Shown piece after piece: positions 217 through 28,868 of a stretch of DNA of 31,480 bases. The notes beneath the pieces are model-generated. The model saw only the letters and a list, made by a program, of their open reading frames with translations, was not told where the DNA came from and ran no database searches. The translations under genes and the position numbers were made by a program. The stretch is from the IMG/VR virus record IMGVR_UViG_2531839484_000009; one strand, 5' to 3'. Source of the DNA: a virus. Lineage: Duplodnaviria; Heunggongvirae; Uroviricota; Caudoviricetes. The stretch's first letter is position 1, and each line of letters opens with the position of its first letter.

Positions 217-1935
217 ATGATTTTTAGGGATAGCTTGAGAGTATTACCTTATGGTCGAGTAGATAATGATTTCTTCCAGATAGAAGAAAGACGTTCATGG
301 AATGCAGGGCGATATTATTGGTCTAATAGAAGGATTTTTGGTTATATTGGAATTACTCAATCCAGTAATAAAGAGCTGAAAGATAAGTCGGGGAGAGAGG
401 GATTCATAAGAAACCAGGCTGCAAGAGAACTGAAAACTATTATATCTAATTTGTTAACTGAACTTGCTGATAGATTTTTTGGTTCACGTTCTGATGACCG
501 TAAAGAGCTTTTAGAACAAGTTAAGCGTGAAAAAGAGTTAAGAAAATCTGCTCAACAACAAGCTCGAAAATCAACACAAAAAAGTTTTTCAGAAGCTTTG
601 AAGAATCAGACACCAGTTCTTGATGCTTCCTTGGAGGCTGTTAAAAGGCTGAAAACTAAGCTTGATAAAACTGATGGTTCGTTAGATTTAAACTATCTTA
701 AAATTATAGACAGTGATCTTACAAACTTAGATGCGTTGCGCAGTGAAATTAAAACGCCTATCAAACCTCCAAAACTTGGAATGTATGAAGAGAAATATAG
801 AGACTACAGAGATAAATTTAATGAGTTCTCTGCGTATATTCTACAAATGAAGTTAGCAATTAATAAACTTGATTCTGAATTAAATAAACTTGAGCCTTCA
901 TTGTCAGCGAAAAATCACCTTGAAAAAAATCAAGGTATTATTAATTCTAAACTAACTAAGTTTAATAACACGATAGAGGAGAAGATACATTCTCTTTTAA
1001 AAAAATGGGCCGATGAAATAAAGGTTGATCGAAGTGATTATTATGCTAAAACTATATCAGTTGTTGATTCAATAGATAATGATTCACAAATTGAAAATGT
1101 GTTTAATTTGCTCGATAGTTTATATGTTGAGTCAGTTGATACCCTAACTTTCAAATATCAATCAATAATAAAAGGTCTCGATAGATTATTTGAAGGTATA
1201 AACTTAGATTCAGCATTCTCATTATCTGAAGAAGAACGCTCATATTTTGAAGAAAAAGCTAAAAGTTTAAACGCGCTTGCACAGTTAGGTATTAGTGTTG
1301 AGATAATATCTCATGAACTTGAAGAAATGGATTCTATGGTAACCAGAGGACTAAACTCTCTTCCTACTTCTGTAAAAGAACACCCTGGTTTTTCATTGGC
1401 GTTAAATGCTCACAGATCGCTTACTCAACAAATACGTTTCTTATCACCTTTGAAAATATCAGGTTATCAATCCAGGCAGAGAATAACTGGAAAAAATATC
1501 ATGGATTATGTCCTGAAGTTCTTTGGGGAGCGTTTCGAACGGCAACGAATAACTATTGAATTTAGTGAAGAGTTTAAGCAAATCGCAATAACAGATATAC
1601 CATCAAGGATCTATCCTGTTTTTACTAATATTATCAACAATGCAATGTATTGGGTCAGTCTGTCAAATAATAGGCTCATAAAGATTGGTTTTGTGAATTC
1701 TTTGGTTATCATAGCAAATTCTGGTCCGGCAATTGATACCGATGATATCCCGCGACTATTTGAACTATTTTATAGCAAAAGAGCAAATGGACATGGGGTA
1801 GGTCTGTATCTATGTCGAGAAAACCTTGCTGTTGCACATCATAAAATATGGTATTCAGAACCTGATGAAGGCGATAACTATTTAATAAAAGATGGCGCTA
1901 ATTTTGTGATCCAGTTCAATGGAGTGGAGTTCTAA
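217..1935 (+). CDS. Histidine-kinase-like protein: coiled-coil N-terminal region, HisKA-like H-box, C-terminal GHKL ATPase (HATPase_c)
   Basis: H-box-like IISHELEE; N-box NIINNAMYW; G1-like IDTDD; G2-like GHGVGLYL. No hydrophobic TM segment seen. No in-frame start between the stop at 88-90 and ATG 217. Confidence 0.55.
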   Translation: MIFRDSLRVLPYGRVDNDFFQIEERRSWNAGRYYWSNRRIFGYIGITQSSNKELKDKSGREGFIRNQAARELKTIISNLLTELADRFFGSRSDDRKELLEQVKREKELRKSAQQQARKSTQKSFSEALKNQTPVLDASLEAVKRLKTKLDKTDGSLDLNYLKIIDSDLTNLDALRSEIKTPIKPPKLGMYEEKYRDYRDKFNEFSAYILQMKLAINKLDSELNKLEPSLSAKNHLEKNQGIINSKLTKFNNTIEEKIHSLLKKWADEIKVDRSDYYAKTISVVDSIDNDSQIENVFNLLDSLYVESVDTLTFKYQSIIKGLDRLFEGINLDSAFSLSEEERSYFEEKAKSLNALAQLGISVEIISHELEEMDSMVTRGLNSLPTSVKEHPGFSLALNAHRSLTQQIRFLSPLKISGYQSRQRITGKNIMDYVLKFFGERFERQRITIEFSEEFKQIAITDIPSRIYPVFTNIINNAMYWVSLSNNRLIKIGFVNSLVIIANSGPAIDTDDIPRLFELFYSKRANGHGVGLYLCRENLAVAHHKIWYSEPDEGDNYLIKDGANFVIQFNGVEF

Positions 1936-1936
1936 T

Positions 1937-3685
1937 ATGACAGTGGCAAATTATAATTCTCTTGTCCAGAAAACTTTCTGCGAAAATGCAATTCGTTCCG
2001 TTGTCATGATTGATGACGATTTTCTGACGTATTCTGAATCAATCAGGGCGTTGAATAACGAAGTTGATTTAGACTACAACAAAATTGACTCATCTAAACG
2101 AGCCGCTACTCTTGAGAGCTTTTTTCAATCTAAAAATATGATTTGTGATGTTGACAATGGTTCTGTTAATTTCGATGTGGATCGGATTAGAAAATCAGAT
2201 CTTATTATTGTAGATTATCATCTTGATAATAATGCACCTGATAAAACACTTAAACCATTACAAGATTTGAAAGACTCCGATCATTTAAATATGATTGTAA
2301 TATATACTAGAGAGAATTTAGAAACGGTTTGGATGCAGATATCATCGACTCTCAAAGGTGCTCTGGATATCAACAGCTTGATCATTGACTACGATAATGA
2401 AGATGTCCAAAGTTATTGGGAAGACGTTGTATTACCGAACTTAAATGATAATGGTAATAAAGCTCTCACAAGAGATGAAACAATAGCCTATATTAAAGAC
2501 AGTAAGCCTTGTAGAAGAATTAAAAGATTAATACATGATGATGCTGTGTTGGAGGATCAAAAGGATAAAAACTTCATTGCAAAAATGATTGCAGAATATG
2601 CTGTGTCTAGAAATGCAATTATTTCTAGCAACACATCTGGCAATGTCATTCGGGGTGATGAAAGCGGAGTAAAATGGATTCAATGTGGTAATATCTTTGT
2701 CTCCCTATTTCATAAGGTTCAAGATGATCATGAAAACGATGGAGATAGGATTTGGCAAACTCTCAATGATTCTCTCATTGAATGGAAACCATCTTATTAT
2801 CAGTTAATAAAATCTGAAATTCAGAATGCAATCGAAGCTGAGGCTTTATCTTTTGTAAATCATTTGGCTAACGATCATTACGGTCAAGCTGCGTGGTTAA
2901 ATGAGATATTAAAATCAGACTCGCCTGATATTAGATGTAGAAATATTGACTTTGTATTTGGTAATTTATCAGAAGAGCTTTATCAAAGACTTAAAAATAA
3001 TAATACGCTGGATGAATTTATCAAAAGTGTTTTTGATAGCTATTCAAATGAATACGCTAACAGCGGAGTTGCTGCATTGCTCCAATATTGCTCTTCAAAA
3101 ATGGATCTGCCATCAAATAATGATACTTATCACGAAATGTATCATGCTTTAAATATGAATTTGTCTTCAAAGAATTTTGAAGATGGTCATATTTCTACTG
3201 GCACTATTTTCTTTGATACAGAGTCGAACAAATGGTATTTATGTGTATCTGCGGCATGTGATTTGGTTCCTACTCAGGGTAACGACCCTCACCATGTAAG
3301 ATTAAGTCCGCACAGGCTCATTAAAGTTCTGGAGCTTTTTAACGCCAGTCAGAGTAAAGCATTGCCATTTGCTGAACATTCGAAATATATATATGTAATG
3401 CATAAAAATCAAAGAAAATATCTCTCTATTTTCGAAGGGGATAAAACGCTTCCTGTTGTTGATTATATGGTGGTGTTGAATCATGGAACAACAGTTGATG
3501 GCGAAGAAAAAAATATTATTTCTGCCGTGTTTTTAAGTAATATGGATGGCAACGTGCAAAATGTTCCTGTCCGACTCAAACTTAAATCTCAACTGAGAAC
3601 TGGTTATGCAGAAAGATATCAGGCTATAGCGTCTCAGTATAGCTCAAGGATTGGTGTGGATTATGTATCAATGATGCTACCATAA
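1937..3685 (+). CDS. Receiver (REC)-like domain protein with ~450-aa uncharacterised C-terminal domain
   Basis: N-terminal motifs VVMIDDD, DLIIVDYHL and MIVIYT fit the REC beta1/beta3/beta4 pattern. ATG 1937 is preferred over ATG 1919 because GGAGTGGAG sits 7 nt upstream; it lies 1 nt after the kinase stop. No HTH output domain recognised. Confidence 0.5.
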   Translation: MTVANYNSLVQKTFCENAIRSVVMIDDDFLTYSESIRALNNEVDLDYNKIDSSKRAATLESFFQSKNMICDVDNGSVNFDVDRIRKSDLIIVDYHLDNNAPDKTLKPLQDLKDSDHLNMIVIYTRENLETVWMQISSTLKGALDINSLIIDYDNEDVQSYWEDVVLPNLNDNGNKALTRDETIAYIKDSKPCRRIKRLIHDDAVLEDQKDKNFIAKMIAEYAVSRNAIISSNTSGNVIRGDESGVKWIQCGNIFVSLFHKVQDDHENDGDRIWQTLNDSLIEWKPSYYQLIKSEIQNAIEAEALSFVNHLANDHYGQAAWLNEILKSDSPDIRCRNIDFVFGNLSEELYQRLKNNNTLDEFIKSVFDSYSNEYANSGVAALLQYCSSKMDLPSNNDTYHEMYHALNMNLSSKNFEDGHISTGTIFFDTESNKWYLCVSAACDLVPTQGNDPHHVRLSPHRLIKVLELFNASQSKALPFAEHSKYIYVMHKNQRKYLSIFEGDKTLPVVDYMVVLNHGTTVDGEEKNIISAVFLSNMDGNVQNVPVRLKLKSQLRTGYAERYQAIASQYSSRIGVDYVSMMLP

Positions 3686-4211: not shown

Positions 4212-5441
4212 TTAGGCTACCAGAGCATTTGATCTTTGAGCTTGAACGTAATCACTCCACCATTGCATCAAACTCTGTCGCTCTATCAGATATTCTGCAC
4301 GATTGTATGCTGCGATAATTTCATCTTTTTTCGAGTGGGCAAGCGCTGCCTCAAGAACTTCAGCTCTGAATTTACCAGACTCCTCTGCCGCTGTTCGTGC
4401 AATAGAACGCATACCGTGAGCTACAAGCTCGCCTCCGAACCCCATTCGGATGATAGCTGCGTTGGCTGTTTGTTCATGCATATGATTAAGAGGCGCTTTT
4501 ATGCTGGGGAAAACCCATTCTCTATGCCCACTTATTGATTTCATTAATTCAAGGATGCGCAAAGCTTCTTTACTCAAAGGAACTTTGTGAAGCTTTTTCA
4601 TTTTCATGAAATCAGCAGGAATGTTCCAAATGCTGTTGGTTGTATCAATATCAGACCACCTTGCGCGAACGGCTTCACCCGGACGAACCCATGTCAACAA
4701 TTGCCATTCAATTAGCATACGTGTTTCCAACCGGATTGACGCATTCGTCAAAGATTCCATAAACCTTGGCAATTCGCTTGGGGGAAGGGCAGGCATATTT
4801 TGCTTTTTTGGTTTACTGAATCTTTGACCAAGGTTGTCAGCCGGGTTGAACTCAATAAGTTCTTCAGTAGCTGCCCACCGGAAGATTTCATTCAGACGTG
4901 AAATGATACGGCGTAGAGTTTCCAATACGCCTCGTTGCTCAATAGGATCAAGGTGTTGTTTTAAGAGCTTAGGTCGGATCTCATTGATAGGGACATTACC
5001 CAGACCGGGAAAGACATTTCTCTCTAAGCTGCGCCAGATGTCTGCTGCATGGTCTTGTGAGATACCTGATGTCTTTACCTTCTCATCTAACCATTTCCGC
5101 GCTACGGCTTGGAGAGTGTGCTCAGTAGCACTCTTTAATGCCTTCGCCTTATCGTTGTTATGGATTTGGGGATCAACACCATTTGCCAGAAAGGAGAGAT
5201 ATTCATCACGTAAGGCTCTGGCTCTTGCAAGGGTAAGGTGAGGATATGTCCCAAGGCTCATTTTGGTTCTTTTCTTGCTCACTGGTACTGCATACCTGAA
5301 ATACCAATTTTTCTTGCCTCCTTTCGCCAAAGGAGCGATTCGTAGAATCAGACCATCACCGTCAAACAAGTTGATTTCTTTATCGGCTGGCTTGGTGCTT
5401 TTGATTTCAGTGTCAGTGAGCTTCTTAGCGATTTTTGCCAT
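4212..5441 (-). CDS. int: Tyrosine integrase, P4-like family with N-terminal arm-binding domain
   Basis: N-terminus KLTDTEIKSTKP...LFDGDGLILRIAPLAKGGKKNWYFRY is typical of P4-type integrases; C-terminal catalytic region HGMRSIARTAA. Start ATG 5441 has GAGGG upstream; ATG 5483 is an alternative in-frame start. Confidence 0.85.
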   Translation of the reverse strand: MAKIAKKLTDTEIKSTKPADKEINLFDGDGLILRIAPLAKGGKKNWYFRYAVPVSKKRTKMSLGTYPHLTLARARALRDEYLSFLANGVDPQIHNNDKAKALKSATEHTLQAVARKWLDEKVKTSGISQDHAADIWRSLERNVFPGLGNVPINEIRPKLLKQHLDPIEQRGVLETLRRIISRLNEIFRWAATEELIEFNPADNLGQRFSKPKKQNMPALPPSELPRFMESLTNASIRLETRMLIEWQLLTWVRPGEAVRARWSDIDTTNSIWNIPADFMKMKKLHKVPLSKEALRILELMKSISGHREWVFPSIKAPLNHMHEQTANAAIIRMGFGGELVAHGMRSIARTAAEESGKFRAEVLEAALAHSKKDEIIAAYNRAEYLIERQSLMQWWSDYVQAQRSNALVA

Positions 5442-5606: not shown

Positions 5607-5651
5607 TGGTGGAGCTGGCGGGAGTTGAACCCGCGTCCGAAATTCCTACAT
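5607..5651 (-). repeat. ssrA: 45-bp copy of the 3' end of tmRNA gene ssrA including the CCA end; att core / integration-site remnant
   Basis: Minus strand matches the recalled E. coli ssrA 3' terminus ...ATGTAGGAATTTCGGACGCGGGTTCAACTCCCGCCAGCTCCACCA over 45 nt, then diverges into AT-rich sequence. Confidence 0.75.
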
Positions 5652-5767
5652 ACCATTTTCACTACAGAAAAAATAATGATTTATGTTTAAAAACAATATG
5701 TTAGTGTTATGTGGTGTTTGGCAGTTTTATCTGTTTTTAAAGCTCTGCCGCCAAAATGTCGCCATCA

Positions 5768-6799
5768 TCAATCGCGTCTCAGCTGGGGTAAGCGAGACAT
5801 CTTGGCGGGTTGATAAGCTATAGTGATCAAGAACTGAGAATACTTGAACCAATTCTCTAGAATCCCTTCACCATATATCAAAATTTTATCTTCTATAGGG
5901 AAGTACAAGTTTACCACTTCATTTCTGCAAGTATCCAAGAAGGCGTAGGTTATCTCTTCTAAGGATTGCAGTGATTCGTACAGAGTGCCAAAATCATAAA
6001 ATGGTGAATAAACTTGGTATTTATTATAACTATCATTTATTACAAATGACTTTTTATAATGAAATCCACCTAAACACAACAGTTTACAAGTTTTTTCATA
6101 AATAATCATAACTCCTACAAATATTCTCATCTTTGTTGTGCAAAGTTCCTCTGTAGGATGTATTTGATTTTCACTCTCGGATAATTGCTTGAGTCTTGCG
6201 TTGATTTCTACCCAACATTTGTGTAAATCAATAACAAATTGCTCATTAATATCTAATTGTTGAGAATCATCAGGCGTAGATTGTGGGTATGCTTTTCTAT
6301 ATAGTTCTTGTGGATGTTTTATAAAATGTTGGTAGATTGCTTCAGCTTGAGCTTCCTGAACCGGGTAGTAGCTGCCTATTCTTTTTCCTTCGATTTTTTT
6401 ATATAAATCAAGATGAAATTTCATGTGGTTGTAATATAAATCTACCCTGTTTTTCCTTTCTGCCTCTGAGATCTGTTTTTCTGTTTGTTTGGTTCTGTGT
6501 AGGTTGTTTACTATTGAAACTAAAGGTACTGCAGATGCAAGGATGAGTAATGGTAATTTCGAGATATCTAAAAATCTCTCATAACCGTGACTTGTAAGAC
6601 TAAAAGAGTGTATTTTATCTATCCAGACAAAAGAACCAAAGTAAAGGCTGGTGAATAAAGGTAGGCCTATTGCAGCCCAGAACAAGGGTTGTTGGAACAA
6701 GCTTCTATGATCGAGAACATAAAGTCGATATTTTATAAATAAGAATATACAACCTAATAAAACGGATAGGTACATAAATGTGCTAATGCTTTTTTCCAT
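5768..6799 (-). CDS. Membrane-anchored hypothetical protein (N-terminal TM helices plus ~250-aa soluble domain); prophage cargo between int and att
   Basis: ATG 6799 lies 2 nt after the int stop (6802-6804) on the same strand; N-terminal hydrophobic segments YLSVLLGCIFLFI, LFWAAIGLPLFTSLYFGSFVW, LPLLILASAVPLVSIV; AT-rich relative to int. Confidence 0.5.
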   Translation of the reverse strand: MEKSISTFMYLSVLLGCIFLFIKYRLYVLDHRSLFQQPLFWAAIGLPLFTSLYFGSFVWIDKIHSFSLTSHGYERFLDISKLPLLILASAVPLVSIVNNLHRTKQTEKQISEAERKNRVDLYYNHMKFHLDLYKKIEGKRIGSYYPVQEAQAEAIYQHFIKHPQELYRKAYPQSTPDDSQQLDINEQFVIDLHKCWVEINARLKQLSESENQIHPTEELCTTKMRIFVGVMIIYEKTCKLLCLGGFHYKKSFVINDSYNKYQVYSPFYDFGTLYESLQSLEEITYAFLDTCRNEVVNLYFPIEDKILIYGEGILENWFKYSQFLITIAYQPAKMSRLPQLRRD

Positions 6800-6801
6800 T
6801 A

Positions 6802-7821
6802 TCAGTATCCCAACATAGCCAGTGGATTTTTTGTTACAGCATCTTCTAAATGATCTGGCGAAAAATGAGCATAAACCATCGTCATTTTTATATCAGAGTG
6901 ACCAAGAATATCGCGTAGTACCAATATGTTTCCGCCATTCATCATGAAGTGACTGGCGAATGTATGGCGCAACACGTGTGTGCACTGGCCTTCAGGCAGG
7001 TCTATACCGGCTCGTTTTACTGCGCGCTCAAAAGCTTTTCTGCAGGGCGTGAATAGTTTCCCTCTGTTTTTGGGGAGTTCTTCATATAGCTCCTGAGATA
7101 TCGGTACGGTTCGGTTTTTCTTGCCTTTAGTTTTGGTGTAGGTGATCCGGTATTTTGATAATTGATGGCCCTGCAGGTTTTCGGCTTCACTCCATCTCGC
7201 GCCGGTGGCCAGACATATTTTTGCAACCGTCAGCAGACTAGAGCTTTGAGAATCGGCGCAGGCATCCAGCAGACGTTTAATTTCTTCCGGGGTCAGGAAC
7301 GCCAATTCACTCTCAGCAATTTTAAATGTTGGCAGCCCAGCAAGCGGGTTGGGGGCTGACCAGTGGCCCAGCTTTTTCAGTGTACCAAAAACAGATGATA
7401 GATTGCGCTGTTCAAGGTTTACCGTGCGGGGCTTAACGGGCGACATAAACGTGCCATCTTCATTTCGTACTTCACCTTTTAACCGTGCTTCGCGGTATTT
7501 CGTAAAGTCACCGGCTGTCAGTTCTGAAGCGATGGGATCGCCTAGACCATTACAGATAATACTAAGTTTCGCCATGAGGCGCTTGGGGTCTGTGAGTGTT
7601 TGACCATACAGGGAATACCACAGCTCAATTAATTCTGATAGATGTCGCCGATCTTCCTTTTCCCCCAGCCATGGTTTTTTGTTCACTTCTTCCATTGTGA
7701 AGCTTTCAAATGCAATAGCTTCGCCTTTGGTAGCAAATTGCTTACGCACGCGCTTACCATTGCGTCCATTGGGATAGCACTCACACAACCATTTTCCGTT
7801 CGGCTGTTTTCTGATGGTCAT
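6802..7821 (-). CDS. int: Tyrosine integrase, P2/186 type
   Basis: 339 aa; C-terminal catalytic region HVLRHTFASHFMMNGGNILVLRDILGHSDIKMTMVYAHF; located downstream of the repressor gene as in P2/186. Confidence 0.9.
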   Translation of the reverse strand: MTIRKQPNGKWLCECYPNGRNGKRVRKQFATKGEAIAFESFTMEEVNKKPWLGEKEDRRHLSELIELWYSLYGQTLTDPKRLMAKLSIICNGLGDPIASELTAGDFTKYREARLKGEVRNEDGTFMSPVKPRTVNLEQRNLSSVFGTLKKLGHWSAPNPLAGLPTFKIAESELAFLTPEEIKRLLDACADSQSSSLLTVAKICLATGARWSEAENLQGHQLSKYRITYTKTKGKKNRTVPISQELYEELPKNRGKLFTPCRKAFERAVKRAGIDLPEGQCTHVLRHTFASHFMMNGGNILVLRDILGHSDIKMTMVYAHFSPDHLEDAVTKNPLAMLGY

Positions 7822-14389: not shown

Positions 14390-14414
14390 GCCCGCCAGAA
14401 CTGGCGGGCTTTTG
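14390..14414 (+). terminator. Rho-independent terminator after the dinI-like gene
   Basis: Perfect stem GCCCGCCAG / CTGGCGGGC followed by TTTT. Confidence 0.5.
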
Positions 14415-14458
14415 CGTAGATCATGCAGGTGCATGAAAACCACTACATAAAGCGGGCA

Positions 14459-14471
14459 GGCGTGGCGGGGA
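14459..14471. other. Candidate cos (cohesive end) element, GGCGTGGCGGGGA
   Basis: 13-nt identity to the start of the 186 cohesive end as recalled (GGCGTGGCGGGGAAAGCAT); GC-rich element just before the AT-rich cargo. Confidence 0.35.
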
Positions 14472-14542
14472 TACGAGCGCGCGGAAAGCTATTAAGATTT
14501 GTCATTTCTATCTTTCTTATGTAATGTTAATAAAAGCATCTT

Positions 14543-14599
14543 AATATTGATGAAAGTAGCAATTGTTCTTAATAGTACGAAGGATTTTTCATCAATATG
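14543..14599. promoter_or_regulatory. 13-bp inverted repeat AATATTGATGAAA ... TTTCATCAATATG (12 of 13) upstream of the ATPase cassette
   Basis: Read directly; arms separated by 31 bp, ending 37 bp before ATG 14636. Confidence 0.35.
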
Positions 14600-14635
14600 A
14601 AAATTAATAAATCATGTGAAAGGAAATGAAAACGG

Positions 14636-16606
14636 ATGATAAGAAATATATATATAAAGAATTTTAAAACATTAAATATGACATCATATATCGAACTTAA
14701 AGAATGTTCATTTTTGTGTGGCGCTAACAGTAGTGGTAAAAGTTCACTTATACAAACACTTCTAATGTTAGCTCAAACTTTTTCTAATAGATATCAAGAT
14801 GATAGTATGGTTTTAAATGGGTCTTTAGCAAGACTGGGTTCATTTACAGATATCAAAAAGCACAACTCTACAGAGGAAGTTATTACTATTGGTTTCACTT
14901 TTGATGTTGATGAGGCGTATTATCTTCGTGATAATACAATAAATTCAATTAGATGTGAGTTTGTTATTGGTAGAAGAGACCGCTCTGTAGCAAAAATAGA
15001 CGAAGATTATCATCCTATAATAATTTCTGCGAAATATTTTATTAGTAAGGGGGGGAATAATAAACAACAGGATTATATACACTTCCAATGTTCAGGTGAT
15101 TATTTTTATTCTAAAGAAGTGGTATATGACGTAGTGTCATTCAACACCTCTGAATATAATGATTTGAAGAAGAGGTTTCCAAGTCTAAAGATTTTAAGTA
15201 TTGCTAAATCTGGGGATTTAATTCCTTCTTTAATAAATATTCAATATGATAAAACAAAAAAAGAAAGCTATGAAATAATTAATTTTTTAACTAGAAAGCA
15301 TAGCACACAGAGGGGGGGGTATTTTTTAGATGATGAGGATTTTGGTGATGATATTCTTATCCCTAGAGAATTCTCCGCAAGAGTTTTGGAGTTGATAAAG
15401 GAAGAACGTAATAAATTATTGGACGAGTTTGACTTGCCAAACGATCTTCTTGACATCATGACACATAGTCATATTGCTAAAGATGATTATATCTCCTATA
15501 GCTATGACAAAAATAAATTATCGCAGAGAGCTAAGGAATTATTAAACGAAATTAAAGGTAATTTCATTGAAATAAACTATTCTTTACAATCAAGTGATAT
15601 TCCTTTAATTTTTGTAAATAAAGCTGTTAGTATAGTTGATTGGAAATCTTGGTTAGATGCTTTGGATGAGAAGAAAAGGAAAAGTTTAATCGTATTGTTA
15701 GAAAAGCACAGGGACAGTCTACAAGCAATATGGTATAACAATATTGATGTTAAAATGACAAGCGACGTATATAGTTCGCACCTTTTACAAGATGTAGAAA
15801 ATGCAATGGTGTACTGTTTCTCGCGAAGCCTAAAGTACCTTGGGCCTCTACGACATGAACCTCAGGCTGTCTATTCATCGAGCCCTTATGATGCAAACAC
15901 CGTAGGTTTGAAAGGTGAATTTACCGCCTCTCTTCTTCATCGAAATCGCGCTAATTTTATATGTTACAGCTCCCCTTCTATAATTAATGGTAAAATAAAC
16001 GTTAGAGAAAAGTATGATACTCTAAACAACGCTTGTAAAGAGTGGTTGTCATTTTTAGGTGTTGTTGAGGAAGTAAGAACTACTGATAAAGGTAAATTAG
16101 GCTATGAGTTATACGTTAAAACTTCTAGCGGCGAAAAATGGCAAGATCTCACTCACGTAGGTGTTGGTGTCAGTCAAGTACTGCCTATTGTATTGATGTT
16201 CTTGAATTCAGATCCTTCAGATGTGTTAATTTTTGAACAACCGGAATTACATTTACATCCTAAAGTTCAATCTAAATTATGTGACCTTTTTCTTATAATG
16301 GCAAATACTGGTCGCCAGTGCATTATTGAAACTCACAGTGAGTATATGATCAATAGATTGAGGCTTAGAGTTGCGCAAGATTTAGACAATAATTACCTCA
16401 AAAAATCAGCGCTATATTTTATAAATAAAGTTAATGGGATATCAGAATTCCAAAATATAAATATTAACAAGTATGGTGCGATTCCTGAATGGCCTGAAGA
16501 TTTCTTTGATCAAACAGATAAGGAAGTTGAAAAGATTTTAATGGAGGCAAGCATAAAGAAAAATAAAGAAAAAGCTAAGAGGTTTACCAATGACAGCGGT
16601 TATTAA
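14636..16606 (+). CDS. ABC/OLD-type (AAA_15/AAA_21-like) ATPase with Walker A and Walker B separated by ~500 aa
   Basis: Walker A GANSSGKSS near the N-terminus; Walker-B-like VLIFEQPELHLHP and H-loop-like IIETHS near residue 530-560; strongly AT-rich. Confidence 0.7.
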   Translation: MIRNIYIKNFKTLNMTSYIELKECSFLCGANSSGKSSLIQTLLMLAQTFSNRYQDDSMVLNGSLARLGSFTDIKKHNSTEEVITIGFTFDVDEAYYLRDNTINSIRCEFVIGRRDRSVAKIDEDYHPIIISAKYFISKGGNNKQQDYIHFQCSGDYFYSKEVVYDVVSFNTSEYNDLKKRFPSLKILSIAKSGDLIPSLINIQYDKTKKESYEIINFLTRKHSTQRGGYFLDDEDFGDDILIPREFSARVLELIKEERNKLLDEFDLPNDLLDIMTHSHIAKDDYISYSYDKNKLSQRAKELLNEIKGNFIEINYSLQSSDIPLIFVNKAVSIVDWKSWLDALDEKKRKSLIVLLEKHRDSLQAIWYNNIDVKMTSDVYSSHLLQDVENAMVYCFSRSLKYLGPLRHEPQAVYSSSPYDANTVGLKGEFTASLLHRNRANFICYSSPSIINGKINVREKYDTLNNACKEWLSFLGVVEEVRTTDKGKLGYELYVKTSSGEKWQDLTHVGVGVSQVLPIVLMFLNSDPSDVLIFEQPELHLHPKVQSKLCDLFLIMANTGRQCIIETHSEYMINRLRLRVAQDLDNNYLKKSALYFINKVNGISEFQNININKYGAIPEWPEDFFDQTDKEVEKILMEASIKKNKEKAKRFTNDSGY

Positions 16607-17615
16607 ATTTGAATATTTAATATCTCCATTGATATGCACTGGTGGGCAGGTAGATGAGCATGTCAATGGTCTGCGATTATTAAAAGAATTAGTTAGTAGT
16701 TCTGACATAGACGTCAAATGCGAGGACTCCATACTCAGCAATATGCAAGAGGCTGGTTATTATCCATGTGCTAAAATATTGAGTAGGGCATTCCCTGGTG
16801 GTGAAGATTGCGTTCATAGCGCTCAAGATGTTTCAAAAATAATAAATAATATAATTAGCCATTTCGAAGAGTGCAATCCTGAAGTTACTTCTCATGAAAT
16901 CGAGTGGGACTCGTTTACGGTTGTGCCGCCTATAGAAACAATATCAGATGAGAGAAAAAATAATGTCGAAATTTTCTTGAGGAATATTCTTTCAAGAAAA
17001 TTTCTATTAAGTGAAGAGTTTTCTTTCTTTTATTCTCAAAGAAATAAGCCAATTCTTCAGTCCCAAAAGTTTTCATTAAGCGGTACAATTAGCGATATAT
17101 ACCCTGCGGATAGTGTAGCAATACCCATTGAATTAAGTAATGAAATAATTGCTCACGGTAATATTAATGATTTCATCAATAATATTGATGGGTACTCTTT
17201 ATATAAAATGGCTAGTAATATATCCGCTCTTAAATGTGCTCTCTTTTTTGGTTGTGTAAATTTTTTGAAAAATAATTATACAGGTGAAAAGTTCGAATGG
17301 GATGATTTCAAAATAGGAGCAGATTTTTTTGATTCGTTGCTAAGACATCAAGGTGCTTTTGAACAAGAGTTTTCCTCAGTAGTTTATGAAACTATAGTGC
17401 AAGTTTTATGTCGCCATCCTAAAAATGAAGTAAAACCATTTAGAGTATCTTCCAAGTCTACTGAACAAAGAACCCATGGTGATTTAAGGGCCTTTCGCAC
17501 CCATATCACTTCTAGACATCAAGCATTGAGACTAATGTTTTGGGTTGATTCCAATCAAATAATCACATTGGCAAATATTGGTCCGAAATTTGAAGAATCT
17601 ATTTCTTTGCCATGA
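16590..17615 (+). CDS. Uncharacterised partner protein of the ATPase (341 aa), putative effector
   Basis: ATG 16590 overlaps the ATPase gene by 17 nt, AGAGG 8 nt upstream; no recognisable HNH or clear TOPRIM motifs; C-terminal RAFRTH / RTHITSRH fit an Rx4-6H pattern. Confidence 0.5.
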   Translation: MTAVIKFEYLISPLICTGGQVDEHVNGLRLLKELVSSSDIDVKCEDSILSNMQEAGYYPCAKILSRAFPGGEDCVHSAQDVSKIINNIISHFEECNPEVTSHEIEWDSFTVVPPIETISDERKNNVEIFLRNILSRKFLLSEEFSFFYSQRNKPILQSQKFSLSGTISDIYPADSVAIPIELSNEIIAHGNINDFINNIDGYSLYKMASNISALKCALFFGCVNFLKNNYTGEKFEWDDFKIGADFFDSLLRHQGAFEQEFSSVVYETIVQVLCRHPKNEVKPFRVSSKSTEQRTHGDLRAFRTHITSRHQALRLMFWVDSNQIITLANIGPKFEESISLP

Positions 17616-17620
17616 GATAA

Positions 17621-17645
17621 GCCCCTCTCAAAAGAGAGGGGCTTT
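17621..17645. terminator. Bidirectional hairpin terminator between the cargo cassette and portal gene Q
   Basis: Perfect stem GCCCCTCTC-aaaa-GAGAGGGGC followed by TTT; overlaps the last codons and stop of Q. Confidence 0.55.
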
Positions 17646-26440: not shown

Positions 26441-27019
26441 ATGAACGCACAATTAACCGAAATCATGCGCCTTATCACCAACCTGATTCGCACAGGGGTA
26501 GTCACCGAAGTGGACAGGGAAAACTGGCTTTGCCGGGTGAAAACGGGCGAGCTTGAAACCAACTGGATCAGCTGGCTGACGCTGCGTGCCGGGAATGCCC
26601 GCACATGGTGGCGACCATCGGAAGGTGAGCAGGTGGTGCTGCTGAGTCTGGGCGGCAATCTGGAAACCGCCTTTGCGTTACCCGCCATCTATTCGAATCA
26701 GTTCGCGCCACCGTCGACGTCGGCGGACGCCTGCGTGACAGAACATCCTGACGGTGGCTGGTTTGAATACGAACCCGCCACCGGGCGCTGGTATGTCAGG
26801 GGCATCAAATCAATGGTCATTGAGGCAGCTGACAACATCACCATGAAAACCAGTGAGTTTGTACTGGAGGCTGACCGCACGCGCATTAACAGCGAAGTAG
26901 TGATCAATGGTGGCGTTACCCAGGGCGGCGGAGCGATGAGTTCTAACGGGATCGTGGTTGATGCGCATCAGCATACTGGCGTCCTGAAAGGCGGCGATAC
27001 AACCGGAGGCCCGGTATGA
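26441..27019 (+). CDS. V: Baseplate spike/assembly protein V (P2 gpV-like)
   Basis: 192 aa, first gene after the late-promoter box. Confidence 0.8.
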   Translation: MNAQLTEIMRLITNLIRTGVVTEVDRENWLCRVKTGELETNWISWLTLRAGNARTWWRPSEGEQVVLLSLGGNLETAFALPAIYSNQFAPPSTSADACVTEHPDGGWFEYEPATGRWYVRGIKSMVIEAADNITMKTSEFVLEADRTRINSEVVINGGVTQGGGAMSSNGIVVDAHQHTGVLKGGDTTGGPV

Positions 27020-27375
27020 CGCTTTATAGCGGGATGAACAATACCAGCGGCAAAGTCATTACTGATATTGACCATCTGCGCCAGTCGGTGCGGGACATTC
27101 TGCTGACGCCGCAGGGTAGCCGCATTGCTCGTCGTGAATATGGTTCCCTGCTGTCGTCGCTAATAGACCAGCCACAAAATCCGGCATTACGCCTGCAGGT
27201 CATGTCGGCAGTGTATGTGGCGCTGAGTCGCTGGGAGCCACGGATGGCACTGGATTCCATCACCATCAACAGCAATTTTGACGGTTCAATGGTGGTGGCG
27301 CTGAGCGGGCGGCGTAATAACGGTGTGCCTGTTTCCCTTTCCGTATCAACAGGAGCAGAGAATGGCAGTGATTGA
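27016..27375 (+). CDS. W: Baseplate protein W (P2 gpW-like)
   Basis: 119 aa; start overlaps the V stop. Confidence 0.8.
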   Translation: MTLYSGMNNTSGKVITDIDHLRQSVRDILLTPQGSRIARREYGSLLSSLIDQPQNPALRLQVMSAVYVALSRWEPRMALDSITINSNFDGSMVVALSGRRNNGVPVSLSVSTGAENGSD

Positions 27376-28270
27376 CCTTTCGCAGTTGCCTGCGCCGCAG
27401 ATTGTGGATGTGCCGGACTTTGAGACGCTGCTTGCCGAACGCAAGGCCGAATTTGTGGCGCTTCATCCGAAAGATGAGCAGGAAGCCGTGATGCGTACGC
27501 TGGAACTGGAATCTGAACCCGTCACCAAATTGTTGCAGGAGAACGCTTACCGTGAGTTGCTTCTGCGCCAGCGCATTAACGAAGCCGCGCAGGCGGTGAT
27601 GGTGGCTTATGCCATGGGAGGCGATCTGGATCAGCTCGCCGCCAACTATAACGTGAAACGCCTGACAGTGACGCCAGCTGATAATGACGCTGTGCCGCCA
27701 GTGGCGGCTGTGATGGAAAGCGATGAAGCGTTACGCCTGCGTGTGCCTGCAGCCTTTGAAGGGCTTTCGGTTGCGGGGCCAACTGCAGCTTATGAATTTC
27801 ATGCCCGAAGCGCCGACGGTCGGGTGGCGGATGCCAGTGCAACCAGCCCGGCACCTGCAGAGGTGGTGCTGACTGTCCTTAGCCGCGAAGGCGATGGAAC
27901 TGCAGAAAAAGACCTGCTGGATGTGGTGGAGAAAGCCCTGAACAGTGAGAACGTCCGCCCGGTGGCTGACCGTCTGACGGTTCGCAGCGCAGAAATCATC
28001 CCGTACCGCGTGGAAGCCACTATTTTTCTCTATCCGGGACCGGAAGCAGAGCCGGTAATGGCAGCGGCAAAAGCCAGCCTGCAGAAGTACATCGCCAGTC
28101 AGACGCGTCTTGGTCGGGATATTCGCCGTAGCGCCATCTTTGCCGCCCTGCATGTTGAGGGTGTGCAGCGTGTGGAGCTGGCTTCTCCTCTGGCGGATGT
28201 GGTCCTGAACAAAACACAGGCGGCATCATGTACGCAGTGGAGCGTGACCAACGGAGGAACGGATGAATAG
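27362..28270 (+). CDS. J: Baseplate protein J (P2 gpJ-like)
   Basis: 302 aa from ATG 27362 (AGGAG upstream); the 27323 extension is rejected. Confidence 0.8.
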   Translation: MAVIDLSQLPAPQIVDVPDFETLLAERKAEFVALHPKDEQEAVMRTLELESEPVTKLLQENAYRELLLRQRINEAAQAVMVAYAMGGDLDQLAANYNVKRLTVTPADNDAVPPVAAVMESDEALRLRVPAAFEGLSVAGPTAAYEFHARSADGRVADASATSPAPAEVVLTVLSREGDGTAEKDLLDVVEKALNSENVRPVADRLTVRSAEIIPYRVEATIFLYPGPEAEPVMAAAKASLQKYIASQTRLGRDIRRSAIFAALHVEGVQRVELASPLADVVLNKTQAASCTQWSVTNGGTDE

Positions 28271-28868
28271 TCTGCTGCCACAGGGTTCAACACCACTGGA
28301 GCGCCGACTGGCGCAAACCTGCAGCGGGATTTCTGATCTGCAGGTGCCGCTTCGTGACTTGTGGAATCCGGCAACCTGTCCGGTCAGTTTCCTGCCTTAT
28401 CTCGCCTGGGCGTTCTCTGTGGATCGCTGGGACGAGGGCTGGACAGAAAGCGTCAAGCGCCAGGTGGTGAAGGATGCTTTTTATATTCATCAGCATAAAG
28501 GGACCACCAGTGCCGTGCGGCGGGTGGTGGAGCCGTTCGGCTTTCTGATCCGCATTATTGAGTGGTGGCAGACCGGAGAGGCACCGGGCACGTTTCGCCT
28601 GGATATCGGCGTGCAGGACCATGGCATCACTGAAGATACCTATCTGGAACTTGAGCGACTGATAAGCGATGCCAAACCATGTAGCCGCCACATGATCGGC
28701 ATGTCCATCAATCTGCAGACCAGCGGCCCGCATTGGGTGGGAGCCGCCAGCTATCTTGGCGAAGAAATCACGATCTATCCGTATATCAACGAAACGATTA
28801 TTTCCGGTGGCACCGCGCATGAAGGCGGGGCGGTCCATGTTATTGACACAATGAGAGTGAATCCATGA
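28263..28868 (+). CDS. I: Baseplate/tail protein I (P2 gpI-like)
   Basis: 201 aa, overlaps J stop and H start. Confidence 0.75.
   Translation: MNSLLPQGSTPLERRLAQTCSGISDLQVPLRDLWNPATCPVSFLPYLAWAFSVDRWDEGWTESVKRQVVKDAFYIHQHKGTTSAVRRVVEPFGFLIRIIEWWQTGEAPGTFRLDIGVQDHGITEDTYLELERLISDAKPCSRHMIGMSINLQTSGPHWVGAASYLGEEITIYPYINETIISGGTAHEGGAVHVIDTMRVNP

Follow-up and report, generated by a model that had tools for sequence, protein, structure and literature searches.

A prophage-carried ABC ATPase and its two-domain partner, a probable abortive-infection module related to the NsnB–NsnC core of Menshen

What does an AT-rich pair of overlapping genes do between the cos-like region and the portal gene of a P2-like E. 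coli prophage? The pair lies at positions 14,636–17,615 of a 31,480-nucleotide (nt) stretch of viral DNA (Caudoviricetes; IMG/VR record IMGVR_UViG_2531839484_000009), hereafter the window, and encodes an ABC ATPase of 656 amino acids (aa) and a partner of 341 aa. A prediction made from the letters of the window and its open reading frames (ORFs) had called it a candidate novel anti-phage system. The two genes form a real and intact module that is under selection and very probably serves in defence; its novelty, however, had been overstated, since the ATPase matches NsnB and HEC-03 models and the partner appears to have the architecture of NsnC. What is new here is a Menshen-like dyad that lacks NsnA and joins a long-insert ATPase to a partner family without library models, which is not a categorically new system. 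On balance we favor, as reasonably likely, a self-contained, prophage-carried abortive-infection module that belongs to the "ABC ATPase plus nuclease" class and corresponds to the NsnB–NsnC core without NsnA.

The ATPase and its partner

The features of the two genes are given below; motif invariance was judged on an alignment of 44 ATPase sequences that includes homologues down to 37% identity.

14636..16606, + strand: ABC ATPase gene (656 aa, WP_001676491), NsnB/HEC-03 type with a DUF3696 tail
14720..14746, + strand: Walker A (P-loop) GANSSGKSS, residues 29–37; G29, G34, K35, S36 and S37 invariant
14780..15829, + strand: expanded Insert-1, about residues 49–398, with a beta-rich and a helical part by secondary structure
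15836..15853, + strand: YLGPLR, residues 401–406; R406 replaces the Q-loop Gln and is invariant
16154..16177, + strand: signature equivalent HVGVGVSQ, residues 507–514; GxG in place of SGG, invariant
16223..16261, + strand: Walker B VLIFEQPELHLHP, residues ~530–542; E534-Q535 in place of D-E; E534, Q535, P536 and E537 invariant
16406..16534, + strand: DUF3696 C-terminal region, residues 591–633; proposed docking element for the partner
16590..17615, + strand: partner gene, putative effector (341 aa, WP_001676492), apparent NsnC-like two-domain architecture
16590..17039, + strand: N-terminal PIN-like domain, about residues 1–150, probably catalytically inactive
17319..17612, + strand: C-terminal RelE/YafQ-like (BECR-fold) domain, about residues 244–341, with conserved R303, H305, R314 and K333

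What had been read directly from the letters, namely two overlapping AT-rich ORFs with a 17-nt overlap, GANSSGKSS, VLIFEQPELHLHP, IIETHS and a ribosome-binding site, is confirmed throughout. The predicted split-Walker ABC ATPase is borne out by Pfam matches to AAA_15 (4.7e-24), AAA_21 (6.6e-22) and, over residues 591–633, DUF3696 (1.5e-9). The profile hidden Markov model (HMM) and PADLOC searches that had been proposed as a check make the ATPase one of NsnB/HEC-03 type and leave the partner unmatched: the best PADLOC models for the ATPase are NsnB (4.4e-78), HEC-03B (2.8e-58, residues 397–642) and PDC-M55A (1.7e-43), with AriA (9e-27), Old, GajA and PD-T4-4 far behind. The Old and GajA matches are limited to the ATPase motifs (1e-10 to 1e-14), and the likeness to PtuA is weak (23 bits against an NCBIfam cut-off of 500; E ~1e-3 in the PDB). 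The weak SMC_N and RecF matches on the N-terminal lobe fall well under the family cut-offs and are, by sequence, generic P-loop-lobe similarity. The top structural match is an SMC head, and only ~285 residues align to solved ABC heads.

The H-loop motif IIETHS (residues 563–568) is invariant, as are three departures from the usual ABC active site. With its natural E-Q pair, Walker B looks like that of the classic ABC mutant deficient in hydrolysis, and it may favor ATP-dependent switching over turnover. NsnB has the same three departures—Arg for the Q-loop Gln, a GxG signature and a Walker B that is not D-E—and carries E-N at the Walker B position (Li et al., 2025, PMC12065111). The NsnB HMM, of 345 positions, finds its match at the two ends of the window ATPase only; because the Q-loop equivalent lies at residues 401–406, residues ~49–398 correspond to Insert-1, which is ~300 aa longer than in the NsnB model and accounts for the greater length of the window protein. 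With a mean pairwise identity of 27.5% over residues 81–372, against 52–77% in the core, the insert is also the most variable part of the protein, and we propose that it serves as sensor or scaffold. By analogy with NsnB, the DUF3696 region would be the element on which the partner docks.

The partner has no match in Pfam, PADLOC (E ≤ 1) or NCBIfam, in line with the expectation that it is not PtuB, AriB/DUF4435 or RloB, and its one library match is a PHROG of unknown function. A word-indexed search found 23 partner clusters, the named ones all from Enterobacterales; with an exhaustive profile search the family grows to 414 representatives (50% identity level), of which 313 reach E ≤ 1e-10 and nearly all have 330–375 aa. 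Conservation within the family was assessed on 143 representatives at 17–36% identity, for which Pfam and PADLOC scans gave no recurrent family. Profile searches of PDB sequences with the partner returned spurious uL29 matches only.

Compared with PIN domains, the N-terminal ~120–130 residues score 5.9 with Nmd4, 5.7 with HARP, 5.2 with SMG5, 5.0 with EST1A and 4.9 with VapC; nothing in the PDB reached significance in a Foldseek search with the partner (best E 0.35), the weak HARP matches pointing the same way. The PIN-like half has no acidic residue conserved across the 143 representatives, and the domain is probably catalytically inactive. The C-terminal domain, a fold match to toxins from toxin–antitoxin (TA) systems of type II, is the most conserved region of the partner: R303 and R314 occur in all 143 representatives, and conservation reaches 90% or more at H305, K333, N329, G331 and W318, all these residues lying within this domain, and the basic and His residues (R303, H305, R314 and K333) are placed on its sheet. 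The suggestion that the Rx4-6H motif marked a HEPN-like protein therefore fails: RAFRTHITSRH is present, but it belongs to the RelE-like sheet and not to a HEPN helix.

An alignment of the C-terminal domain (100 aa, partners of 46 loci) separates two active-site subtypes, that of the window (R-x-H / LRLMFW / G-x-K) and a His-rich one (H.LR / RRDID / HLHYW / HND) common in loci embedded in BREX, with R303 and W318 invariant in both. The contrast echoes that between RelE-family RNases with Lys/Arg-based and with His-based catalytic sets, and the His-rich subtype appears to fit the H-R-H triad reported for the PB-BECR1 domain of NsnC. In weak local HHalign alignments with RelE and YoeB, the strand ALRLMFW pairs with GYRLVYQ of RelE and EHRLVYA of YoeB. 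We regard the partner as a putative RNase.

Both genes are under purifying selection. Compared with an 85–87% identical Klebsiella copy, the ATPase has a ratio of nonsynonymous to synonymous substitution rates (dN/dS) of 0.09 and the partner one of 0.12, with the lowest values in the RelE-like domain (0.04–0.08).

The cos–portal slot, mobility and distribution

The cassette is cargo of the gpA–gpQ, cos-adjacent P2 hotspot, as had been predicted; the hotspot and its variable content have been described (Rousset et al., 2022), and the exact ATPase/partner pair is listed in that study, with no sign there of curation, naming or testing. Sister P2-like prophages keep the order DinI-like gene, cos, cargo, portal, and in the same slot they carry a hypothetical protein with a HIRAN protein, a hypothetical protein with a STAS-like protein, or a RelA/SpoT-type pyrophosphokinase. 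A 3.4-kilobase query matched end to end in only 2 of 5,426 complete E. coli genomes, and its flanks in ~1,280. The slot and its signals in the window are the following.

14390..14413, + strand: terminator-like hairpin GCCCGCC-N6-GGCGGGC followed by TTTT, 3' of the DinI-like gene, read from the sequence
14440..14489, no strand assigned: cos-like region with core GGCGTGGCGGGGA at 14459–14471, left boundary of the variable slot
14499..14527, + strand: leader block TTGTCA-N17-TAATGT, putative cassette promoter, found by alignment
16577..16582, + strand: Shine-Dalgarno AAGAGG of the partner gene, within the 3' end of the ATPase gene
17621..17642, no strand assigned: 9-bp G+C hairpin GCCCCTCTC-AAAA-GAGAGGGGC, spanning the Q stop, right boundary of the slot

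The hairpin at 14390..14413 marks the end of the conserved early region and lies inside the flank kept in the ~1,280 genomes. The cos-like core, which we take to resemble the cohesive ends of P2/186, lies shortly ahead of a fall in GC content: the cassette (14490–17620) has 32.4% GC against 48.0% in the early and 55.0% in the late region of the prophage. The ATPase gene is preceded, in order, by the DinI-like gene, cos and an AT-rich leader of 146 nt. Within the leader, the block TTGTCA-N17-TAATGT is a putative cassette promoter; a consensus promoter scan of the leader flagged none, the block escaping it because its -10 hexamer fits 3 of 6 positions. AAGAGG stands 7 nt 5' of the partner ATG, and the overlap of 17 nt between the two ORFs suggests translational coupling of ATPase and partner. 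At the other end, the claim that the cassette lies flush against the Q stop at a hairpin was accurate: 12 nt separate the partner stop from that of the portal gene (Q) at 17628, and the hairpin that spans the latter may act as a bidirectional terminator.

Close relatives are carried by temperate phages of four kinds, namely in another P2-like hotspot (L098), in a lambdoid prophage of Klebsiella (L095), at the integrase edge of a prophage in Morganella (L097) and in a Pf filamentous prophage of P. aeruginosa (L003). The cassette has 31–35% GC in L095, L097 and L098, against flanks of 49–56%. Alignment finds the leader block in the window, L098 and L095 despite their unlike backbones, and the cos-like stretch is kept in L098. 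In L095, a degenerate copy of the P2-type cos-like stretch, together with the TTGTCA-N17-TAATGT block, lies 5' of the cassette at ~4850–4900; therefore the module moved with its own leader, which suggests transfer out of a P2-like hotspot into the lambdoid backbone. NZ_LR882493 (L001), from the second E. coli strain that has the identical cassette, agrees with the window across the cassette only, the rest of its prophage not being colinear. At 26892–28774, where the virion-morphogenesis gene is followed by that for baseplate V, its prophage holds an additional pair of an AAA ATPase (409 aa) and an HNH endonuclease (217 aa), Septu-like by annotation, between the two; the window prophage lacks this pair, so that one cassette sits in different P2-like backbones.

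The distribution of the pair was scanned in one genome per species, and the best 80 of the loci found were examined. Long-form relatives of the ATPase occur in at least 572 species genomes, and in 61 of the 72 loci with enough sequence the ORF directly 3' of the ATPase is a partner by the 143-member HMM; the other 11, of which several are actinobacterial, lie mostly among the weaker ATPase matches. In Pseudomonas, Burkholderia and Klebsiella, distant homologues of the ATPase are each followed by an overlapping ORF of 340–343 aa that aligns with the partner over its full length at 27–36% identity.

At 23 of the 80 loci (including L014, L025, L032–L039, L041–L050, L064 and L076) a methyltransferase of ~950 aa, identified by PADLOC as full-length PglXI at >1,260 bits, abuts the start of the ATPase. 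The gene order, BrxC – PglXI – [ATPase – partner] – BrxH helicase – PglZ, is that of BREX type 3, with one fixed insertion position; among the hosts are Acidobacteriota, Verrucomicrobiota, Bacillota, Nitrospirota, Chloroflexota, Myxococcota and Proteobacteria. Each of the 19 embedded loci whose downstream sequence is long enough has the partner, every time between pglXI and the helicase gene, and no PADLOC v2 model recognizes these embedded partners. Away from BREX, the pair is intact in 42 of 53 loci without adjacent BREX genes. Embedding has precedents: HEC-03 was found through "guilt by embedding", and BREX, too, often carries embedded genes (Payne et al., 2024, bioRxiv 10.1101/2024.01.29.577857). 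Pairs of an OLD-type ABC ATPase and a PIN endoRNase inside BREX are proposed, in a recent survey, to be back-up suicidal effectors (NAR 2026, PMC12839542).

NsnA is absent beside the window pair, none of 20 upstream neighbors of related ATPases has a Pfam DUF262/ParB match, and no DUF262 is called in the nine loci with precomputed Pfam matches. Three-gene Menshen was considered for distant loci with a large upstream ORF and rejected, the ORF being PglXI of BREX type 3; the upstream neighbors of 410–570 aa at standalone loci likewise include no NsnA, and are unrelated ATPases, an oxidoreductase and a transposase.

Short-form DUF3696 ATPases (377–469 aa) also occur in two-gene modules (L007 205–2422; L092 3362–5823; L093 3368–5996), and plasmid and phage protein searches for NsnC sequences returned other such loci. 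The short-form ATPase of L007 is paired with a clear partner homologue. A Bacillus plasmid copy lies beside AbiG, and an Aeromonas plasmid copy stands with a 177-aa protein and an RNA ligase-family gene. L094 (AM157364, P2-EC5 ORF555 + ORF333) brings together an ATPase and a partner of ~333 aa from a P2-like hotspot of ECOR5; this ATPase shares only C-terminal motifs with that of the window. The Bacillus and Aeromonas plasmid partners and P2-EC5 ORF333 were tried as members of the partner family and rejected; since the partner HMM matches none of them, they belong to different families.

Mode of action, alternatives and known systems

How might the pair work? The ATPase would form an SMC-like ABC head oligomer around a non-canonical active site (E-Q Walker B, Arg Q-loop, GxG signature), and its DUF3696 region would grip the inactive PIN-like domain of the partner, so that the RelE/YafQ-like domain is kept silent. 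An AlphaFold 3 model of this kind exists for NsnB4–NsnC2, in which the DUF3696 tails of NsnB clamp the PIN-like domain of NsnC (Li et al., 2025, PMC12065111); by analogy with these models and with PARIS and Septu structures, we propose that the effector is kept inactive by the ATPase oligomer. A cue from an infecting phage, read most likely through the hypervariable Insert-1 of ~300 aa, would shift the nucleotide or conformational state of the ATPase, and the effector, freed or activated, would cut RNA (mRNA on the ribosome, or tRNA/rRNA), halting translation and aborting the infection. On a P2-like prophage the module would shut out competing phages, and in BREX type 3 the dyad would provide a back-up effector. 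What the analysis itself shows is the gene anatomy, the family assignments, the fold matches, the conserved residues, the co-occurrence of the two genes, their genomic settings and purifying selection; the defence phenotype, the RNase activity, the docking interface, sensing by Insert-1 and the trigger are what we infer about the module. A more ambitious version makes the dyad an autonomous sensor–effector unit, of which NsnA-containing Menshen would be only one elaboration: Insert-1 would itself recognize phage proteins and unleash the RelE-like RNase, so that the module would protect BREX type 3 from inhibition and, when carried by prophages of four families, would exclude rival phages. We offer this only tentatively, as possible but doubtful. 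AriA recognizes Ocr, and by analogy the proteins recognized by Insert-1 could plausibly be anti-restriction or anti-BREX factors.

Several observations weigh against the abortive-infection account. The literature searched gave no experiment on this ATPase/partner family, and the ATPase–partner interface is drawn by analogy with the NsnB4–NsnC2 models. The E-Q Walker B pair may leave the ATPase with little or no ATP hydrolysis. Sequence profiles of the partner gave no RelE or PIN relative; HHalign comparisons with RelE, YafQ and YoeB gave probabilities below 2%, and the PADLOC NsnC model matches 1 of the 143 partner members, at E 0.0034. Within a closer clade, E8, E45 and D80 of the PIN-like half are invariant, and there the domain may not be inert. 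Finally, RNase activity of the partner is not assured, because ParE gyrase poisons have the same fold as the RelE-like domain.

This last point opens the alternative that the partner is no RNase at all: its RelE/ParE-fold domain could be a gyrase poison or a binding module, with toxicity exerted by the PIN-like domain or by the ATPase on DNA. We consider it unlikely, given that the residues conserved family-wide on the RelE-like sheet are basic or His, that the sister subtype is His-rich there, like the H-R-H triad of NsnC, and that the PIN-like half lacks an acidic residue conserved across the family. The same toxin fold, together with the Pfam description of AAA_21 as "putative AbiEii toxin, Type IV TA system", the carriage of the pair as cargo on integrative elements and the toxicity of HEC-03 when induced, would suit an addiction module that stabilizes the prophage, with the partner in the role of toxin and the ATPase in that of a large protein antitoxin. 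Stabilization of a prophage, however, explains poorly why the pair is embedded in chromosomal BREX type 3 across many phyla, and in the analogous PARIS deletion of either gene is non-toxic; we give this reading little credence, although TA and abortive-infection roles can coexist.

The embedded loci could instead mean that the pair serves BREX type 3 as an accessory and depends on BREX components (the state of methylation that PglXI sets), its prophage copy being a non-functional or differently functioning orphan. Retention of the partner between pglXI and the helicase gene in 19 of 19 embedded loci fits this, as do the integrated back-up effectors reported in the BREX survey (PMC12839542). 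Yet 42 of the 53 loci without adjacent BREX keep the pair, the E. coli and Klebsiella prophage copies are under strong purifying selection (dN/dS ~0.1), pair and leader move together among four phage backbones, and the validated relative HEC-03 works as two genes, which together make dependence on BREX improbable. Least probable by far, and in our view a very slight chance, is a role of the ATPase in phage DNA metabolism (SMC/RecF-like, in replication, recombination or packaging near cos) unrelated to conflict. The pair does adjoin cos and the packaging genes, and the N-terminal lobe has its SMC_N and RecF matches, but these are below cut-offs, the composition is foreign and sister prophages hold unrelated cargo in the slot; present in 2 of ~1,280 related E. 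coli prophages, the cassette is dispensable for the phage.

The abortive-infection reading thus leads back to the systems that the pair resembles. Menshen (NsnA–NsnB–NsnC) protects against phages (Millman et al., 2022), and its NsnC combines an inactive N-terminal PIN-like domain with a nuclease or toxin domain at the C-terminus, which is most often BECR (Li et al., 2025, PMC12065111). The window ATPase shares with NsnB the DUF3696 tail, the motif departures and its best PADLOC match, and the window partner, like NsnC, appears to have a PIN-like domain without conserved catalytic acids followed by a BECR/RelE-like domain; in both systems the ATPase gene precedes and overlaps that of the effector, and both associate with BREX and restriction–modification loci. 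Unlike Menshen, there is no gene for NsnA (ParB-DUF262 + ParBDB) here or in the related loci tested, the PADLOC NsnC model misses the window partner, and the C-terminal domain has R-x-H...R...K in place of the H-R-H triad reported for NsnC. Since NsnA is absent, the window pair is not Menshen as defined, and an NsnA-less form was outside the reach of the Li et al. survey because that survey was seeded on NsnA.

HEC-03 protects against phages, for which both of its genes are required, and its induction is toxic (Payne et al., 2024, bioRxiv 10.1101/2024.01.29.577857). It, too, is a two-gene ABC ATPase and PIN-domain protein found embedded in another defence system. Its ATPase HMM, however, covers only the C-terminal half of the window ATPase, and its partner is described as a VapC-like PIN, without mention of a RelE-like domain. 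In PADLOC the HEC-03 partner model matches neither the window partner nor its 143 relatives, and the PIN acidic residues are not conserved in them; by partner family the window pair is not HEC-03. The dyads of an OLD-type ABC ATPase and a PIN protein within BREX (PMC12839542) are described in a way that our BREX type 3-embedded relatives fit, including the proposed back-up role; the part of that survey considered here treats the class at domain level, and the RelE-like domain, the kinship with DUF3696/NsnB and the standalone prophage form do not figure in it.

PARIS is alike in its proposed logic, an ABC ATPase scaffold and sensor freeing a nuclease on a phage cue so that RNA (tRNA) is cut and the infection aborted, and P2/P4 hotspots next to cos carry it as well; the window ATPase gives a weak match with AriA HMMs (9e-27). 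It differs in that its effector is a DUF4435/TOPRIM nuclease, which the window partner is not by its domains, and in that AriA has no DUF3696 tail. With the toxins RelE, YafQ, YoeB and ParE the window partner shares conserved basic and His residues on the sheet, though its domain is fused behind a PIN-like domain and linker and paired with a 656-aa ATPase, in contrast to RelE, YafQ and YoeB; there is no significant sequence similarity of the partner to type II TA RNases, and the cassette has no small antitoxin gene or conserved small ORF. Septu was rejected for want of an HNH match in the partner (Pfam, PADLOC), and OLD/Gabija because the ATPase ends in DUF3696 rather than TOPRIM and no helicase gene is present. 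The original label "OLD-type" accordingly holds for the class of the ATPase but not for the TOPRIM domain, which is absent. By analogy, then, the window pair would work most like Menshen, HEC-03 and PARIS.

If the dyad protects, the NsnB–NsnC core works without its supposed DNA sensor NsnA, and sensing shifts to the variable insert of the ATPase. Current defence finders probably miss the system, since neither Pfam nor PADLOC models the partner family with its 414 representatives; if the present alignments were turned into such a model, loci in hundreds of species could be annotated. Because the same dyad is both a recurrent insert of BREX type 3 and mobile prophage cargo, it makes the idea of back-up effectors in BREX testable.

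Other features of the window

A second AT-rich pair of overlapping genes (GC 0.31–0.36) lies at 217–3685 (+) between an IS3 end and an integrase-domain gene. RefSeq names the products an "ATP-binding protein" (572 aa) and a "response regulator receiver domain" protein (~582–588 aa), and as neither has a PADLOC match the pair may be unclassified island cargo or a defence candidate. ARAGORN found no tRNA or tmRNA in the whole window. A closely related genome annotates a 177-nt ssrA (tmRNA) at ~5607–5783 (-) of the window, and the P2-like prophage therefore appears to be integrated at ssrA. Between the P2-like integrase (6802–7821) and the attachment site, an AT-rich gene at 5768–6799 (-) encodes a 343-aa hypothetical protein (WP_001676483; local GC ~0.32) and occupies a second cargo position of the prophage.

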